Shown: piece after piece, positions 13,802 to 18,551 of the stretch | Layout of the letters: every line of letters starts with the position of its first letter | Position numbering within the stretch: the first letter of the stretch is position 1 | Origin: a virus | Direction: 5' to 3' (one strand) | DNA: 18,551 bases | UHGV virus genome: UHGV-0121047 | Notes under the pieces: generated by a model | Told to the model about the DNA's origin: nothing | Seen by the model: the letters and a program-made list of their open reading frames with translations, nothing else | The model's database searches: none | Position numbers and translations under genes: made by a program

Positions 13802-14359
13802 ATGAGATATTTGAAGTATGCTTCATGGATTTTCCTAGCTTTACTAGAACCATTTGCAGCATCCCTAGCAGTCATCTTAGCACCTTTCGTAGTTCCATTC
13901 TACAGTGAGAAGAAAGGACATCTACCTTTTGGATTCAGATGGATGGAGACCTATGACAACCCGATTGATGGTGATGAAGGCCACGTTAAAAGATGGGCTA
14001 AGATTAGAAAGATTGGTAAGCTGGGTGTCTACATGCAGAGAGTTGGATGGCTCTGGAGAAACAAAGCTTATAACTTCTCTTACCATGTACTAGGAAGAGA
14101 TATAAAAGATGTTACTAAGTGGAAAGGTAATATCAACGTAAGTTCTGACCCTGAAGATAATCAGACTGGTTATCTCCTAATGTGGAACAGTAATGCTTGG
14201 GGATTATTCGCTTTTATCCCATCAATTAAAGTCTTTGGTAAACAGTTTTACTGGAGAATTTATATTGGATGGAAACTAAAAAGTGTTGTCCCAGAAGAAA
14301 GAGCACTCTCAAGGGAAAGAGTTATGTTGGCATTCTTTATTCATCCACTGAGAAAGTAA
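13802..14359 (+). CDS. hypothetical membrane protein embedded in the tRNA array (185 aa)
   Basis: ATG 13802 with AAGAGG 11 nt upstream; N-terminal hydrophobic helix (SWIFLALLEPFAASLAVILAPFVVPF); Trp-rich body; flanked on both sides by tRNA genes. Confidence 0.7.
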   Translation: MRYLKYASWIFLALLEPFAASLAVILAPFVVPFYSEKKGHLPFGFRWMETYDNPIDGDEGHVKRWAKIRKIGKLGVYMQRVGWLWRNKAYNFSYHVLGRDIKDVTKWKGNINVSSDPEDNQTGYLLMWNSNAWGLFAFIPSIKVFGKQFYWRIYIGWKLKSVVPEERALSRERVMLAFFIHPLRK

Positions 14360-14367
14360 AGATTTAA

Positions 14368-14440
14368 AGGGGATTAGTTTACAAGGTTAAAACCTCGGTC
14401 TTTGAAATCGAAGAAGTTGGTTCAATTCCAACATCCCCCG
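14368..14440 (+). tRNA. tRNA-Gln (anticodon TTG)
   Basis: Anticodon arm TCGGT-CTTTGAA-ATCGA, T arm GTTGG-TTCAATT-CCAAC, acceptor AGGGGAT/ATCCCCC with unpaired 1:72, CCA encoded. Confidence 0.75.
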
Positions 14441-14445
14441 CCAAT

Positions 14446-14520
14446 GCTCCATTACTCCAATTGGCAGAGAGGCCAGACTTAAAATCTGTGTTATGTATCG
14501 GTTCGAATCCGATATGGAGT
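14446..14520 (+). tRNA. tRNA with Leu anticodon TAA but class I architecture
   Basis: Acceptor GCTCCAT/ATGGAGT, D region CCAATTGGCAGAG shared with the CAA tRNA, anticodon loop CTTAAAA, T arm ATCGG-TTCGAAT-CCGAT, CCA encoded. Confidence 0.6.
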
Positions 14521-14529
14521 ACCAAATTT

Positions 14530-14602
14530 AGCGGTATAGCATAACTGGCAATGCAGCAGCCTCTGAAGCTGTCCTATTAAGGTTCAAATCCTTATGCCGC
14601 TG
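14530..14602 (+). tRNA. tRNA-Gln (anticodon CTG)
   Basis: D arm GCAT/ATGC, anticodon arm GCAGC-CTCTGAA-GCTGT, T arm TAAGG-TTCAAAT-CCTTA, acceptor AGCGGTA/TGCCGCT, CCA encoded. Confidence 0.8.
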
Positions 14603-14636
14603 CCACTTCTAAGGATTCTTACGAGAGTCCTTAAAT

Positions 14637-14709
14637 GTGGCCTTATCATAAATGGTAATGACCCATGCTGTGAACATGGTCTATACGGGTTCAAATCCCG
14701 TAGGTCACC
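14637..14709 (+). tRNA. tRNA-His (anticodon GTG)
   Basis: D arm TCAT/ATGA, anticodon arm CCATG-CTGTGAA-CATGG, T arm ACGGG-TTCAAAT-CCCGT, discriminator C (bacterial His-type), CCA encoded. Confidence 0.8.
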
Positions 14710-14717
14710 CCAATTTA

Positions 14718-14792
14718 TAGTCCAAGTAGCTTATATGGTTAAAGCGCGTGTCTGAAAAACATGAGAAGAGGGTTCAAATCCCACTGGACTAC
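14718..14792 (+). tRNA. tRNA-Phe (anticodon GAA)
   Basis: Perfect acceptor TAGTCCA/TGGACTA, D arm GCTT/AAGC, anticodon arm CGTGT-CTGAAAA-ACACG, T-loop GGTTCAAATCC; 4-nt acceptor-to-D linker, so exact ends are uncertain by 1-2 nt. Confidence 0.65.
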
Positions 14793-14810
14793 CAATTTCA
14801 AAGGTGCTTA

Positions 14811-15545
14811 ATGAAAGAGATGACAGAACAAGGTAAGGAGATTTTTAATCTCTTAAAAACCGGTAAAGGGTTTTCTAACCCACTTATTACTGGTGCAGCA
14901 GTTCTCGGTGGAACCGTAGCTGCCTCTACATCACTTGTAAGCTCTATTAGCTCTGTAACAGACCCTACAATGAAGGAGAAGCTTGTTGCTGCTGGACTTA
15001 CAACAGTCCTTCTAAACAGCTTTACAACAAGCCTGACAAGCACTACAGCAACTACTAAGACCCTAACAGACTATGGTCAAAAGTCTATTGATGAGTTTTC
15101 ATCACGTATGCAGGTAGCAAAGGGATACTCCAATGTTATGGGTGCAGCAGGAGAACAAGTTGGTTGTACACCATTCAGTGGTATTATGGGTGTTGCTACA
15201 GAATATGGTCAAAAAGCTATTGACATGATGAACAGTACACTAGATAGTGTTAATGGTGTGTTAAGTGACTTACAAGACGCTATTGATAAGGGTCTTGATA
15301 CTGTTTCTGATTTGGCTAACCAAGCTGTTAGCAAGATTAATGAAGGTATCTCAAAGATTACAGCTTATGCAGATGAAGTTGTGCAGATGATTGAAGAAGA
15401 AGCTGCCCTTATTGCAGAGTACCTTAAAACGAATATCAATGGGTTCTTAGCAGGTATCTTACCAGACTGGTTTGATGATGCTTGTAAAACTGGTGTAATC
15501 GACACTATTGCAACACCAGAAATGAAGAACGCATTGCAGAAATAA
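14811..15545 (+). CDS. hypothetical Ser/Thr-rich protein embedded in the tRNA array (244 aa)
   Basis: In-frame ATG at 14811 with AAAGG 6 nt upstream; the six-frame ORF start at 14748 would lie inside tRNA-Phe and is rejected; Ser/Thr/Ala-rich N-terminal half, helical C-terminal half. Confidence 0.7.
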   Translation: MKEMTEQGKEIFNLLKTGKGFSNPLITGAAVLGGTVAASTSLVSSISSVTDPTMKEKLVAAGLTTVLLNSFTTSLTSTTATTKTLTDYGQKSIDEFSSRMQVAKGYSNVMGAAGEQVGCTPFSGIMGVATEYGQKAIDMMNSTLDSVNGVLSDLQDAIDKGLDTVSDLANQAVSKINEGISKITAYADEVVQMIEEEAALIAEYLKTNINGFLAGILPDWFDDACKTGVIDTIATPEMKNALQK

Positions 15546-15546
15546 T

Positions 15547-15635
15547 GGAAGATTAACCCTAAAAGGTAAGGGAGCAGTTTGCTAAACTGCCAGTAGCTGA
15601 GAAATCGGTGTACCAGTTCAAGTCTGGTATCTTCC
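15547..15635 (+). tRNA. tRNA-Ser (anticodon GCT), class II
   Basis: Perfect acceptor GGAAGAT/ATCTTCC, anticodon arm GCAGT-TTGCTAA-ACTGC, 19-nt variable arm, T arm ACCAG-TTCAAGT-CTGGT, CCA encoded. Confidence 0.8.
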
Positions 15636-15642
15636 TCCAATT

Positions 15643-15715
15643 TGAATCCGTGACAGAAATGGATATGTGCCTGTCTGCAAAACAGGTTTATAAGGGTTCA
15701 AGTCCCTTCGGATTC
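15643..15715 (+). tRNA. tRNA-Cys (anticodon GCA)
   Basis: Perfect acceptor GAATCCG/CGGATTC, anticodon arm CCTGT-CTGCAAA-ACAGG, T-loop GGTTCAAGTCC, CCA encoded. Confidence 0.8.
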
Positions 15716-15756
15716 TCCAAGTTATTTTACTCTCTCTCAATTAAAATAATAATAAT

Positions 15757-15816
15757 GCCCTGCTATAAGTATTCTTCCTTTCGCTACCGAAGAGTATTTT
15801 TAGACAGGGCTTTTTT
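15757..15816 (+). terminator. Long imperfect hairpin followed by TTTTTT; candidate terminator of the tRNA transcript
   Basis: GCCCTG (15757-15762) pairs with CAGGGC (15805-15810), inner arms AGTATTCTTC/GAAGAGTATT, then T-run 15811-15816. Confidence 0.5.
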
Positions 15817-15881
15817 ACAGAGTTATACTTTATAGGAAGACTTATACAGTATGTCTCTGACGTACATTGTGGTTTCTCCTT

Positions 15882-15905
15882 GACGGTCTCTGTGCCGTCT
15901 TTTTT
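15882..15905 (+). terminator. Rho-independent terminator
   Basis: GACGG (15882-15886) / CCGTC (15895-15899) with 8-nt loop, followed by TTTTTT (15900-15905). Confidence 0.6.
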
Positions 15906-15941
15906 AAGGGGAAACATGGTTAATTATTTGGAGAAAACATA

Positions 15942-16142
15942 ATGAGCGAGACCGTTTATAAAGAACTTTATGAAGCTAATAAAAAGCTAGAATTTATGCA
16001 GAACACTATCATGGCAATTGCAGATAGATTATCTGTAGCAACAGGTATTGATATTAAAGAAGCATCTATGGATGCACTTCTTGATGCTGTTGATGCAAAG
16101 TTCGAAGTTAAGAAAGAAGAGACTGCTACAGACTCTGAATAA
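15942..16142 (+). CDS. small acidic hypothetical protein immediately upstream of the terminase large subunit (66 aa)
   Basis: ATG 15942 with GGAG about 8 nt upstream; position suggests a packaging-associated protein but 66 aa is short for a small terminase. Confidence 0.55.
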   Translation: MSETVYKELYEANKKLEFMQNTIMAIADRLSVATGIDIKEASMDALLDAVDAKFEVKKEETATDSE

Positions 16143-16163
16143 TTCTATTTGCGGAGGCGCTTA

Positions 16164-17765
16164 ATGGACTTAAATGCTGTTAAGCAGAAGCGAGTGGAAG
16201 ATGTTAGGAAAGTCCTAGCTGGAGAGTTGGGGCTTTCTGATGAAGTAAAAGAAATTATCAAATCATTCGGTAAAGACCCCTCTAAATTCCTTCCAACTCA
16301 AATTCTGACTTTATTAAGATACACACCAGACCAAGTTCGCCTTATCTTTAAATTGATGACTGATAAGAACTATGTAGCCCCTCAACCGGGTTCTCAAGAG
16401 GTCTTTTTAAACACTAATGCTGACTTGGTTCTTTATGGTGGTGCTGCTGGTGCTGGTAAAACTGCCGCATTGTTAATGGACTCTTTAAGATTTATTGAAG
16501 ACCCTAACTATAATGCTGTATATTTCCGTCGAAATACAACACAGTTACAAGGTGGTTTATGGCCTGCTGCAAAGAAACTATTTGGTAAGTTTGGTGGGAT
16601 TCCTCACGAGCAGAAAATGACTATCACATTCCCTTCTGGGGCGACTATCAAGTTTACCTATCTAGAACTTGAAAAGCACGCTGAAGGTCATCAGGGTATT
16701 GAATACTCAGCTATTTACTTTGACGAAGGTACACACTTCTCTGCTTCACAGATTTCATACCTACAAACTCGTCTACGTTCTGGTGCTGAAGGCGATTCAT
16801 ACATGAAGATTTCCATGAACCCAGACAGAGACCATTTTATTTATGATTGGGTAGAACCATTCTTAGATGAAGAAGGTTATCCAGACCCTGAAAAGTGTGG
16901 TCGTATTCGTTGGTATGTAATGAATGATGGTGTGATGGTTTCTGATTGGGAGAGAGACAAGATTCTTGAAATGTTCCCTCTTGAGATTCCTCAAACATAC
17001 ACCTTCATCTCTGGTACGATTGATGATAACCCAATTCTTGACTTCTTAGAACCTAAGTACCGTGGTAAGTTGGAAAACAACACCCCTGTAAACGTTGCAA
17101 GACTTCGTTTCGGTAACTGGAAGGCTCGTGCAGAAGGTTCAAACTATTGGCAAAGACAATGGTGTGAGATTGTTGATTCACTTCCAGAAGATGTATTCGA
17201 TGTTAGAGCATGGGACTTAGCAGCAACTTTACCATCTGAGATTAACCCTAATCCAGACTGGACAGCGGGTGTTAAGATGGGTAAATCTAAAAAAGACGGT
17301 TGCTATTATATCATTGATGTAGTAAGATTTAGAGATAGACCCTCTGGAGTCGAAACACAAATTAATTTGACTGCTGAAAGTGACGGTAAGCGAACTGGTA
17401 TTTTTATCCCTCAAGACCCAGGCGCTGCTGGTAAATCCTACGCAACATCCCTCATCAGGAAACTTGCCGAGAAAGGTTATCGTGCAAGAGCTAAACCAAC
17501 AAATAAAGATAAAGTTACCCGATTTGCGGGGTTTTCTGCTGCTTCTGAAGCTGGACTTGTAAAAGTTTTGAGAGGTAGTTGGAACGAAGCTTATTTCCAA
17601 GAGCTTGAAGGCTTTTGTGGTGATGGCAAAACTAAAGATGACCAAGTGGATGCTACCAGTGATGCTTTCAACAGTCTTAACGAAGTTAAATTATTCAAGC
17701 CACCATCAATGGGTGCTCACACAGACTTAGTGAGAGGAAACCCATATGAGGGGCTTAGACGTTGA
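16164..17765 (+). CDS. terminase large subunit
   Basis: Walker A-type motif LYGGAAGAGKT near the N-terminus and a hydrophobic-DE Walker B-like motif (IYFDEG); about 530 aa; followed directly by a portal-like gene. Start placed at ATG 16164 (GGAGG 7 nt upstream) rather than the in-frame TTG at 16149. Confidence 0.85.
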   Translation: MDLNAVKQKRVEDVRKVLAGELGLSDEVKEIIKSFGKDPSKFLPTQILTLLRYTPDQVRLIFKLMTDKNYVAPQPGSQEVFLNTNADLVLYGGAAGAGKTAALLMDSLRFIEDPNYNAVYFRRNTTQLQGGLWPAAKKLFGKFGGIPHEQKMTITFPSGATIKFTYLELEKHAEGHQGIEYSAIYFDEGTHFSASQISYLQTRLRSGAEGDSYMKISMNPDRDHFIYDWVEPFLDEEGYPDPEKCGRIRWYVMNDGVMVSDWERDKILEMFPLEIPQTYTFISGTIDDNPILDFLEPKYRGKLENNTPVNVARLRFGNWKARAEGSNYWQRQWCEIVDSLPEDVFDVRAWDLAATLPSEINPNPDWTAGVKMGKSKKDGCYYIIDVVRFRDRPSGVETQINLTAESDGKRTGIFIPQDPGAAGKSYATSLIRKLAEKGYRARAKPTNKDKVTRFAGFSAASEAGLVKVLRGSWNEAYFQELEGFCGDGKTKDDQVDATSDAFNSLNEVKLFKPPSMGAHTDLVRGNPYEGLRR

Positions 17766-17781
17766 TAGCTAGGTGAGAAGA

Positions 17782-18551
17782 ATGGCAGATAGAATGGGTG
17801 AAGTAGGTTCTTTGGGTCTGAAGGTTAAGAATGGGAGAATCTATGAAGAACCTCGTCAGGCACTAAGGTTCCCTGAAAGTATTAAAACTTTCCAATTAAT
17901 GATGCGTGACCCTGCTGTAGCAGCATCTGTAAATATTATTAAGATGTTTGTCAGAAAAGTCAACTGGAGATTCGTACCTCCAAAGGGAAAAGAGCAAGAC
18001 CCTAAAATGCTTGAAAGAGCAGACTTCTTTAATTCTTTAATGGATGACATGGAGCATGATTGGGCAGATTTTATTAACTCTGTAATGTCATTCTGCACTT
18101 ATGGATTCTGTGTTAACGAAAAAGTTTATAAGAAGCGTCAGGGTAAGAAAGGGAAGTACCAATCAAAATTCGATGATGGTTTAATCGGATGGGCTAAATT
18201 GCCAATCAGAAACCAGTCAACGCTTGATAAGTGGTACTTTGACGAAGACTTTAGAAAAGTTACTGGTGTTAGACAGAATCTGAGAAATGTTTCACATATT
18301 GCTGGAGCAATTAATCTCGGAGAAAGACCACTGACAAGAAAACTTCCACGAGCTAAATTCATGCTGTTTAAGTATGACGATGAATATGGAAACCCAGAAG
18401 GTCGTTCACCATTACTTAATGCTTATGTGCCGTGGAAGTATAAAGTACAGATTGAAGAGTATGAAGCTGTTGGTGTTTCAAGAGACTTGGTTGGTATGCC
18501 AAAGATTGGTTTACCACCGGACTATCTGGATGAAAATGCAGAACCTGAAAA
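17782..18551 (+). CDS. portal protein (putative), 5' partial, runs off the end of the window
   Basis: ATG 17782 with AGGTGA 5 nt upstream; open frame to the window end (about 256 codons, my own translation); assignment is by position directly after the terminase large subunit. Confidence 0.55.
   Translation, partial: MADRMGEVGSLGLKVKNGRIYEEPRQALRFPESIKTFQLMMRDPAVAASVNIIKMFVRKVNWRFVPPKGKEQDPKMLERADFFNSLMDDMEHDWADFINSVMSFCTYGFCVNEKVYKKRQGKKGKYQSKFDDGLIGWAKLPIRNQSTLDKWYFDEDFRKVTGVRQNLRNVSHIAGAINLGERPLTRKLPRAKFMLFKYDDEYGNPEGRSPLLNAYVPWKYKVQIEEYEAVGVSRDLVGMPKIGLPPDYLDENAEPE

Follow-up and report, generated by a model that had tools for sequence, protein, structure and literature searches.

A conserved, predicted terminator–promoter–weak terminator junction upstream of the packaging genes in a Felix O1-type phage genome, and a candidate for its small terminase

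The stretch of viral DNA analysed here (UHGV virus genome UHGV-0121047; 18,551 nucleotides (nt), hereafter the window) belongs to Felixounavirus, being 98–99% identical to the phages Felix O1, momo, and wV8. With positions 15500–18551 as the megablast query, 215 phage records reach a query coverage of 80% or more, almost all of them at 95–99% identity, and the matches are all Felix O1-like myoviruses (Felixounavirus, Ounavirinae), e.g., momo, Felix O1, and FO1a. A single strand carries all genes from position 8833 on. An array of 23 tRNA genes (10867–15719, found by ARAGORN) is followed in order by a 222-nt gap, an open reading frame (ORF) for a protein of 66 amino acids (aa) corresponding to Felix O1 ORF51, the gene for the large terminase subunit (TerL; ORF52), and the start of the portal gene. 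The present analysis concerns the 222-nt gap as a putative transcriptional junction, the translational start of TerL, and the gene most likely to encode the small terminase subunit (TerS). The features between the last tRNA gene and the end of TerL are as follows.

15644–15719, plus strand: tRNA-Cys, final gene of the 23-tRNA array (ARAGORN; Rfam tRNA model, 56 bits)
15757–15816, plus strand: T1, predicted strong intrinsic terminator, a 54-nt interrupted hairpin (15757–15810) followed by six U (15811–15816) (folding, covariation, and annotation)
15801–15829, plus strand: P, predicted sigma70-type promoter TAGACA-17-TATACT (scan; 10 of 12 consensus matches)
15818–15859, plus strand: H2, 42-nt dyad or hairpin over the −10 element and the predicted transcription start site (ΔG, −14.9; 99.4% of cells paired)
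15849–15865, plus strand: H3, small predicted hairpin GUAUGU-CUCUG-ACGUAC (folding)
15872–15915, plus strand: T2 module, consisting of a 5′ arm GUUUCUCCUU (15872–15881), a hairpin (15882–15899), six U (15900–15905), and a 3′ arm AAGGGGAAAC (15906–15915) (scan and folding)
15942–16142, plus strand: 66-aa ORF (Felix O1 ORF51) with the Shine-Dalgarno (SD) sequence GGAG at 15930–15933 (phrog_4397, 6e-41)
16153–16157, plus strand: SD sequence GGAGG of TerL, 6 nt upstream of the ATG (sequence)
16164–17765, plus strand: TerL, 533 aa, predicted start ATG 16164 (Terminase_6N, Terminase_6C, and phrog_979)

The junction was compared in an alignment (A4) of 32 distinct relatives comprising Felixouna-, Susp-, Moogle-, and L093-type sequences, in which Suspvirus is represented by CHB7 and EcSzw_1, and Mooglevirus by Mordin, Sf13, and others. 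More distant relatives, designated by L numbers, were drawn from IMG/VR and metagenomes, and their sequences around the junction are not alignable; the Erwinia phages mentioned below belong to Kolesnikvirus (including FIfi106).

T1 begins 37 nt past the last tRNA gene. It folds with −25.4 kcal/mol, compared with −10.7 ± 2.4 for dinucleotide shuffles (z, −6.2; 0 of 200 as good), and the hairpin by itself with −24.2 kcal/mol. Among the 32 relatives, pairing is kept in 99.1% of the cells, with compensatory double changes at two pairs (UA↔CG in five sequences and UG↔AU in one), and T1 is 95–97% identical to its counterparts in Suspvirus and Mooglevirus. Both T1 and T2 consist of a G+C-rich stem-loop with at least five U directly on its 3′ side and with maintained pairing, and the T-run is retained across lineages even where the stems differ. 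At the position of T1, other hairpins with a T-run and unrelated stems are found in L093, L095, L100, and P778, and none in Erwinia phage FIfi106. A consensus scan of 15700–16200 called four terminator-like sites against 0.2 expected, including T2; T1 was missed because its loop is as long as 11 nt. Both positions are annotated as ‘terminator’ in Citrobacter phage Michonne, and both are missing from the terminators tabulated in the Felix O1 genome paper (Whichard et al. 2010). The preliminary description, made from the sequence of the window, had placed a hairpin plus T-run at 15757–15816 and at 15882–15905, between tRNA-Cys and the small ORF, and these coordinates proved exact. Like ordinary Rho-independent terminators, T1 and T2 close with G+C-rich pairs and run directly into U6 on the sense strand; unlike them, T1 has an unusually long stem (20 pairs in 54 nt) and a loop conserved in Felixouna-, Susp-, and Mooglevirus, and T2 has a promoter ahead of it and is enclosed in a longer helix, the 3′ arm of which follows the U-run. 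The T1 loop was also considered as a conserved recognition element, and this was ruled out by the replacement of the apical part of T1 in L093. A promoter-like sequence upstream of T1 (TTTACT-16-AATAAT, 15726–15753) was dropped, as it is not conserved in Mooglevirus.

The T2 hairpin alone is formed with −7.4 kcal/mol and has four G-C among its six pairs. Based on the energies of the lone hairpins (−24.2 versus −7.4 kcal/mol), we infer that T1 is a strong terminator and T2 a weak one. Just past the U-run, AAGGGGAAAC is able to pair with GUUUCUCCUU, giving a 16-bp compound hairpin; with this 10-bp outer helix, the T2 module reaches −18.8/−20.2 kcal/mol (z, −4.5; 0 of 200 shuffles as good). T2 is 100% paired in the 32 relatives with apical pair types UG, UA, and CG, and every helix of the junction keeps at least 95% of its cells paired in the same set. 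RNAalifold independently returned T1, H2, and T2 nested in the outer helix. At the position of T2, analogues composed of a hairpin and a T-run with unrelated stems are present in L093, L095, L100, P778, and the Erwinia phages, and the folds predicted for the window, L095, L100, and the Erwinia phages also include an outer helix, built from different sequences, that closes only past the U-run. In P778, the complementary AAAGGGGAA follows the U-run, and the P778 sequence that was folded ended before this 3′ arm. Since the 3′ arm of the outer helix is transcribed after the U-run, it cannot compete with termination and would form only in read-through RNA. T2 is therefore taken as a partial stop, and the compound hairpin as a probable feature of the 5′ untranslated region (UTR) of the packaging mRNA.

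The −35 element of P sits within the 3′ arm of T1, and the transcription start site is predicted at about 15836. P is invariant across the 32 relatives of the alignment, and four of the six lineages under comparison have a promoter at the equivalent location. The sites called by the scan are TAGACA-17-TATACT in L093, TTGACA-18-TATTGT (with a TG element) in L095, and TTGACA-18-TAGAGT (with a TG element) in L100, for which 0.2–0.5 promoter sites per scanned region are expected by chance. No promoter was called by the scan in P778 or the Erwinia phages; a TTGACA is visible by eye in P778 and L096. Altogether, the order of the last tRNA, a hairpin with a T-run, a sigma70-type promoter, a CU-rich stretch, a second hairpin with a T-run, the small ORF, and TerL recurs in distant relatives. 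A second promoter directly upstream of GTTTCTCCTT in the window, placed as in L095 and L100, was dropped by eye because of its poor −35 element.

Two further hairpins overlap the start of the predicted P transcript. H2 shows double changes at two pairs in the 32 sequences, including the series AU (18), GU (9), and GC (5), and the centre of its loop varies freely among A, G, C, and T; it may be either an RNA hairpin of read-through transcripts or an operator-like palindrome. H3 is mutually exclusive with H2, and of the two only H3 can form in transcripts started at P. Its variation is restricted to changes between U-A and U·G, and an equivalent hairpin is found in the Erwinia phages and L093. 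A −10-like hexamer TATACA (15843–15848) lies downstream of the predicted start site, but within the H2 dyad.

Elsewhere in the window, a 12-bp hairpin formed by AAAGGGTATTGACA and TACCCTTT (10712–10748), which follows the gene of a Ro-like protein described below, contains the −35 element of a promoter TTGACA-17-TAATAT, an overlap of terminator and promoter of the same design as that of T1 and P. In the Felix O1 genome paper, this hairpin has the entry t42/t43 (bidirectional terminators).

The 149-nt block comprising T1 to the U-run of T2 (15757–15905) is 88–97.5% identical across Felixouna-, Susp-, and Mooglevirus; the segment 15817–15865 is 88–94% identical to Susp- and Mooglevirus, and the spacer together with T2 is 95–97.5% identical across the three genera. 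In the same comparison, the third codon positions of the flanking genes are 52–75% identical, the 36 nt between T2 and the 66-aa ORF 53–64%, and the coding sequence (CDS) of the 66-aa protein 67–73%. These identities show that the block is as constrained as the neighbouring tRNAs. A protein-coding origin of the conservation would require the 58-aa ORF on the minus strand (15917–15741), which is open in the Felixounaviruses and annotated as a hypothetical protein in UAB_Phi87; several other records carry a ‘hypothetical protein’, with its strand unchecked, under the match to this stretch. The start codon of this ORF is not conserved, frameshifts or stops interrupt it in L034, L093, and Mooglevirus, and the variable columns are even over the codon positions (11/13/14). 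It is hardly credible that this ORF accounts for the conservation, and it is probably an annotation artefact. Two mini-ORFs were likewise discarded: a 14-aa ORF on the minus strand with a perfect SD sequence at 15867, which has no coding signature and is not conserved as judged by eye, and an 8-codon ORF on the plus strand at 15917 overlapping the start of the 66-aa ORF, the ATG of which is missing in Felix O1.

Alternatively, the conserved block could encode a small stable RNA, either an RNA of ~70 nt from P to T2 exposing a single-stranded, anti-Shine-Dalgarno seed GGUUUCUCCUU, or a T1–H2–T2 RNA of ~150 nt cut out of the tRNA precursor by processing. The nucleotide conservation, which equals that of the neighbouring tRNAs and far exceeds that of neutral sites, and the compensatory changes in three helices are in line with such an RNA, as is the layout of a promoter, a 5′ hairpin, an unpaired CU-rich stretch, and a terminator, which is typical of small RNAs. 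Also, none of the 32 sequences of the alignment (Felixouna-, Susp-, Moogle-, and L093-type) departs from the CU-rich motif, which P778 and L095 carry as well; L100 and the Erwinia phages have a shortened version, and L096 has lost it. Against this, no Rfam family matches the block: with Rfam 15, only tRNAs pass the gathering score, and nothing credible is found in 15700–16200 at E ≤ 10. A search for the Y RNA and YrlA families, prompted by the Ro60-like gene, gave no Rfam match either. Furthermore, whenever T2 is read through, the sequence following the U-run is predicted to sequester the CU-rich stretch by pairing, and the corresponding RNA would be only ~35 nt long in L095 and L100. From the sequences compared, a dedicated small RNA as the reason for the conservation appears improbable. 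In the T4 tRNA cluster, the small stable RNAs species 1 and 2 are co-transcribed with the tRNAs. The block described here resembles them in being a conserved, structured, non-coding stretch directly after the last tRNA of an array, but has no sequence or Rfam relation to them.

The position of P between T1 and T2 suggests that T1 ends the tRNA unit, and that T2 belongs to the leader of the packaging operon. The 222-nt gap would therefore be a conserved transcriptional junction and more than a double stop. In the mechanism that we propose, T1 would close the transcription unit of the tRNA array, and the host-type sigma70 promoter lying over the 3′ arm of T1 would start the transcript for packaging and morphogenesis. 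T2, located ~45–70 nt into the P transcript, would halt some transcripts and pass the rest, attenuating or gating the late operon; in the transcripts that read through, GUUUCUCCUU and AAGGGGAAAC would pair to build the 16-bp compound hairpin in the 5′ UTR. The tandem terminators of the preliminary description thus stand as two good predicted intrinsic terminators, but not as a back-to-back pair on one transcript, because a conserved, predicted sigma70-like promoter lies between them.

A true tandem, fail-safe pair was weighed against this mechanism. In that case, T2 would catch the transcripts escaping T1, the promoter-like site would be idle, and the packaging genes would be served by residual read-through from promoters of the tRNA array. 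The RNA-type conservation of H2 and of the outer helix needs transcripts that start upstream of 15818, the Erwinia phages retain T2 without a detectable promoter, and all genes from 8833 onward share one strand, each of which agrees with a tandem pair. On the other hand, TTGACA or TAGACA sites with 17–18-nt spacing recur between T1 and T2 in lineages that cannot be aligned, two serial terminators without a later promoter would starve an operon of essential genes, and the Felixounavirus Bas63 tolerates disruption of the scored genes of its tRNA array. A tandem pair is therefore considered unlikely.

Several observations weigh against the terminator–promoter–weak terminator mechanism itself. L096 has the promoter and no T2; the Erwinia phages have T2 plus an extra terminator and no recognisable promoter or T1; and L069/L070 (TerL 59% identical) lack any intergenic element. 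In L095 and L100, the −10 element ends just 13–14 nt before the T2 hairpin, which would place T2 nearly at the 5′ end of the RNA and prevent complete formation of the predicted outer helix. The covariation seen in H2 points to an RNA that starts upstream of the predicted start site, and hence either at least some functional transcripts read through T1 or H2 acts as DNA. In the literature searched, no mapped transcript ends or starts and no transcriptome papers were found for Felix O1-like phages. The reverse transcription PCR (RT-PCR) table for Felix O1 records ORF45, 46, 48, and 49 at 5 min, ORF52 at 25 min, and ORF51 and 53 at 60 min. The early timing of ORF48/49 and the late timing of ORF51/53 fit a temporal boundary at the junction; nevertheless, we give this table little weight because the capsid gene is also listed at 5 min.

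The late switch of phage lambda consists of a constitutive promoter PR′, a promoter-proximal terminator tR′ (6S RNA), and the Q antiterminator. As in PR′–tR′, a host-type promoter (P, 15801–15829) is followed within ~70 nt by an intrinsic terminator (T2, 15882–15905), before the genes for packaging and morphogenesis (from 15942), and the short product formed without read-through would be a small RNA. Unlike in lambda, no Q-like gene or qut site is recognised in the 18.5-kb window and the short loci covered, T2 is weak, so that passive partial read-through may suffice, and some relatives are without T2 or the promoter. By this analogy, P might be constitutive and yield an RNA of ~70 nt, with the operon being opened only by a phage factor or by a switch between H2 and H3, a full parallel that we consider rather doubtful; in that case, the short RNA ending at T2 may also act on its own through the invariant anti-Shine-Dalgarno seed GGUUUCUCCUU.

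For the translation of the packaging genes, we propose that it would begin at the 66-aa ORF (SD sequence GGAG) and restart at the TerL ATG 16164 (SD sequence GGAGG), leaving TTG 16149 unused. TerL was identified by Terminase_6N (2e-43; 148.9 bits, cut-off 22), Terminase_6C (4e-33; 114.9 bits, cut-off 22.6), and phrog_979 (4e-233), with the Walker A motif GGAAGAGKT visible in the alignment. It had been noted in the preliminary description that the terminase frame is open from TTG 16149 and that the GGAGG at 16153–16157 points to ATG 16164; both are correct, and the GGAGG does mark the start. The ambiguity seen in this start disappears once relatives are compared, as the N-terminus is conserved and the TTG is found in the closest relatives only. 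The sequence M(D/N)L..(V/I)KQ.R aligns at residue 1 in Felixouna-, Moogle-, and Kolesnikvirus, P778, L069, L093, L095, L096, and L100, and the Suspviruses CHB7 and EcSzw_1 match the window across the TerL start at the DNA level. An SD core (GAGG, GGAG, or AAGG) is kept across all lineages, and the codons for any upstream start are not. TerL is annotated from the ATG homologous to 16164 with a CDS of 1602 nt in Felix O1, momo, CHB7, EcSzw_1, Mordin, Sf13, P778, and UAB_Phi87, and all public TerL CDS features checked begin at this ATG (1602–1605 nt).

A start at TTG 16149, which would give a protein of 538 aa, is compatible with the open frame, and the UAB_Phi87 paper states that orf144 (TerL) uses TTG. 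However, the GenBank CDS of UAB_Phi87 itself (L008, 1364–2965) has 1602 nt and an ATG start, no SD sequence precedes the TTG (16149–16151), and this in-frame codon occurs in the closest genera only, being missing in P778, the Erwinia phages, L093, L095, L096, L100, and L069. In the 21 nt between the two genes, only two substitutions are seen (Mooglevirus); both would be non-synonymous, and the GAGG core is kept. On these comparative grounds, TTG 16149 is judged not to be used, the longer protein being very improbable. The 21-nt junction (16143–16163) is 100% identical between Felixouna- and Suspvirus, and GGAGGCGCTTAATGGA is kept even in L069 (TerL 59% identical), which exceeds what an SD sequence alone would need.

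In the window, the 66-aa ORF is in frame with TerL, separated from it by TAA and seven codons. A read-through product or fusion of the two was ruled out because this in-frame arrangement is not conserved: in other lineages, the small-ORF stop is 14–32 nt upstream of TerL with a frame offset of 0, 1, or 2. The longer N-termini in phrog_979 come from phi92-like TerL and have no similarity to the 66-aa family. The phi92-like PD06 (L079, 1629–3713) encodes a TerL of 694 aa with a Hint/intein-like insert after Walker A (YGGAAG followed by CVSAETEYLTRDGW), and the extra N-terminal positions of the phrog_979 profile are attributed to the intein in phi92-like TerL.

Homologues of the 66-aa protein (60–114 aa) are encoded 14–32 nt upstream of TerL in all Ounavirinae-like lineages examined, including the terminator-less L069/L070. 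The isoelectric point (pI) of the 66-aa protein is 4.4, and that of the family is 4.2–4.9 in every lineage, with a net charge from −3.5 to −10. The structure prediction suggested in the preliminary description was run with AlphaFold2 (AF2), and gave a model with a mean confidence score (pLDDT) of 81.5, consisting of two helices (residues 3–34 and 43–54) and an acidic tail, for which a fold search of the Protein Data Bank (PDB) returned nothing significant; no relative was found in Pfam, NCBIfam, or PDB. Among 1.84 billion representatives, the family gave 23 hits at E ≤ 0.001, the convincing ones having 60–96 aa. Six long protein hits with multiple stretches, and a match of the profile to GldM among the PDB sequences (E = 0.0011, 30 residues), were taken as coiled-coil noise.

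The canonical position directly before TerL in every Ounavirinae-like lineage examined would suit a TerS, the T7-type representatives of which have only ~89 aa, and the predicted long and short helices could oligomerise. However, all lineages have a strongly acidic version of the protein, it lacks a DNA-binding motif, it is unrelated to any TerS family or solved structure, its family is restricted to this phage group, and the marine L162 has a remnant of an HNH endonuclease before TerL in its place. Since the acidic pI makes DNA binding unlikely, the 66-aa protein is an implausible DNA-recognition subunit, and a role as TerS, alone or together with the protein described next, is quite unlikely. 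The doubt already raised about this ORF as a TerS is thereby borne out by its acidity and by the missing match to TerS families. We would rather regard its product as an acidic helical partner of TerL, encoded by a conserved linked gene and related to packaging.

The alternative named in the preliminary description was the ‘GRPKG protein’ encoded at 8833, a better candidate than the 66-aa protein by its synteny with TerL, its AT-hook-like motif, and its essentiality in Bas63.

8833–9204, plus strand: DUF5681 protein (Felix O1 gp41, the ‘GRPKG protein’; PF18932, 2e-14)

The gene is located ~7 kb upstream of TerL and heads the same rightward block of genes. The protein has a pI of 9.95 (11.8 for the N-terminal 40 residues) and contains the invariant motif K-G-x-S-G-N-P-x-G-R-P-x-G-S-x-N, which matches the second AT-hook of HMG-I(Y) (PRGRPKGSKNKG; PDB ID: 2EZD) at the level of a motif, with E = 0.18. 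In four distant lineages (L153–155, L156/157, L159, and L164), the DUF5681 gene abuts or overlaps TerL; the TerL beside it has the Terminase_6N/3/3C domains in L156/157 and L159, and belongs to phrog_38 in L153–155 (2e-99) and L164 (5e-72). The marine L162/163 (TARA and ENA contigs) carry a DUF5681-like gene, eight tRNAs with HNH genes, TerL, and a Mu-type portal gene, and show the same split as the window. It seems that tRNA arrays have landed repeatedly in the interval between the candidate TerS and TerL. In the PhageMaP screen of Bas63 (10.1101/2024.10.10.617714), gene 129 (DUF5681) has fitness values of −3.1, −3.2, and −3.5 in MG1655, similar to those of TerL, portal, and capsid genes, and the adjacent Ro-like gene and every scored gene of the tRNA array are dispensable.

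Other results speak against this assignment. AF2 yields a model of low confidence (pLDDT, 66), in which three helices come after a disordered N-terminal arm, and its Foldseek search against PDB gave only non-significant matches to the G20c/P74-26 TerS (E ~4). Among the known families, Pfam gives DUF5681 alone, the PHROGs matched are without a function, apart from one weak hit (0.009) of a relative to phrog_24579 (TerS), and NCBIfam gives nothing. Outside Ounavirinae, the phages with the closest TerL (Nankokuvirus RP12, ICP1, and the phi92-like PD06) were found to have no DUF5681 gene upstream of it. Because no homology to known TerS families is seen, the protein is described as one that may work like a TerS, with no named family. 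Like the TerS of lambda (Nu1), SPP1 (G1P), Sf6 (gp1), T4 (gp16), T7 (gp18), and P74-26/G20c, DUF5681 proteins are small (110–135 aa), with a basic N-terminus and helices behind it; several phage lineages have the gene immediately before TerL and often in overlap with it, and the gene is essential in Bas63. Unlike them, DUF5681 has no detectable similarity in sequence or fold to any TerS family, an AT-hook-like GRP motif in a disordered arm would take the place of a helix-turn-helix in DNA binding, and the gene is 7 kb from TerL in the window. Weighing both sides, the DUF5681 protein is probably the TerS of the Felix O1-type phages, and the best candidate at hand. DNA recognition would then most likely be performed by this basic protein with its AT-hook-like motif, and in this lineage the Ro-like gene, the tRNA array, and the physical genome ends would have come to lie between its gene and TerL.

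The GenBank record of UAB_Phi87 has an exact 542-bp repeat at both ends, which maps to 14027–14568 of the window; in the UAB_Phi87 paper, a direct terminal repeat of 608 bp was determined by Bal31 digestion and run-off sequencing (in the window possibly to ~14634). This mapping places the physical genome ends within the tRNA array. They cover the 3′ part of a DUF7338 gene and tRNA-Gln/Leu/Gln, and lie 1.3–1.9 kb upstream of TerL, between DUF5681 and TerL. The Ro-like protein mentioned above is encoded by the ORF 9286–10701 and resembles Ro60/TROVE proteins (DUF2828 and DUF7788; phrog_850, ‘RNA-binding’). Its homologue in Bas63, gp130, is reported to counter the Ppl defence system, and some of the ‘tRNAs’ have been speculated to be Y RNAs (PhageMaP preprint, 10.1101/2024.10.10.617714). 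A hairpin of ~100 nt (13032–13131) abuts tRNA-Leu and scores like a miRNA precursor (Rfam, 34 bits; E = 2e-4); it could be a Y-RNA-like stem. Two extra tRNA-like genes at 11463–11545 (45 bits) and 12462–12540 (33 bits) were detected by the Rfam tRNA model and are not in the ARAGORN output; judged by position and without alignment, the former may be the tRNA-Asp annotated in Felix O1 just after tRNA-Tyr.

Altogether, we assign a probability of about 0.6 to the whole account, i.e., a conserved terminator–promoter–weak terminator junction, a TerL starting at ATG 16164, and DUF5681 as TerS. Taken by themselves, the terminators, promoter, and TerL start are nothing unusual, and public annotation already contains them for the most part. 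Modestly new are the reading of the gap as terminator, promoter, and weak terminator, the strong conservation and covariation of the leader, and DUF5681 as the likely missing TerS.

Felix O1 is a classic phage for Salmonella typing and biocontrol, and its genome paper (Whichard et al. 2010) reported no recognisable small terminase and left temporal control and the handling of terminators unexplained. The analysis fixes the TerL start and is useful for annotating and engineering Felix O1-type phages, with nothing surprising in kind. If the gate at T2 is real, it would give these phages a defined late switch; if the assignment of DUF5681 is right, it would give a function to a Pfam domain of unknown function, and the terminase gene pair would be one split by a tRNA array and the genome ends.

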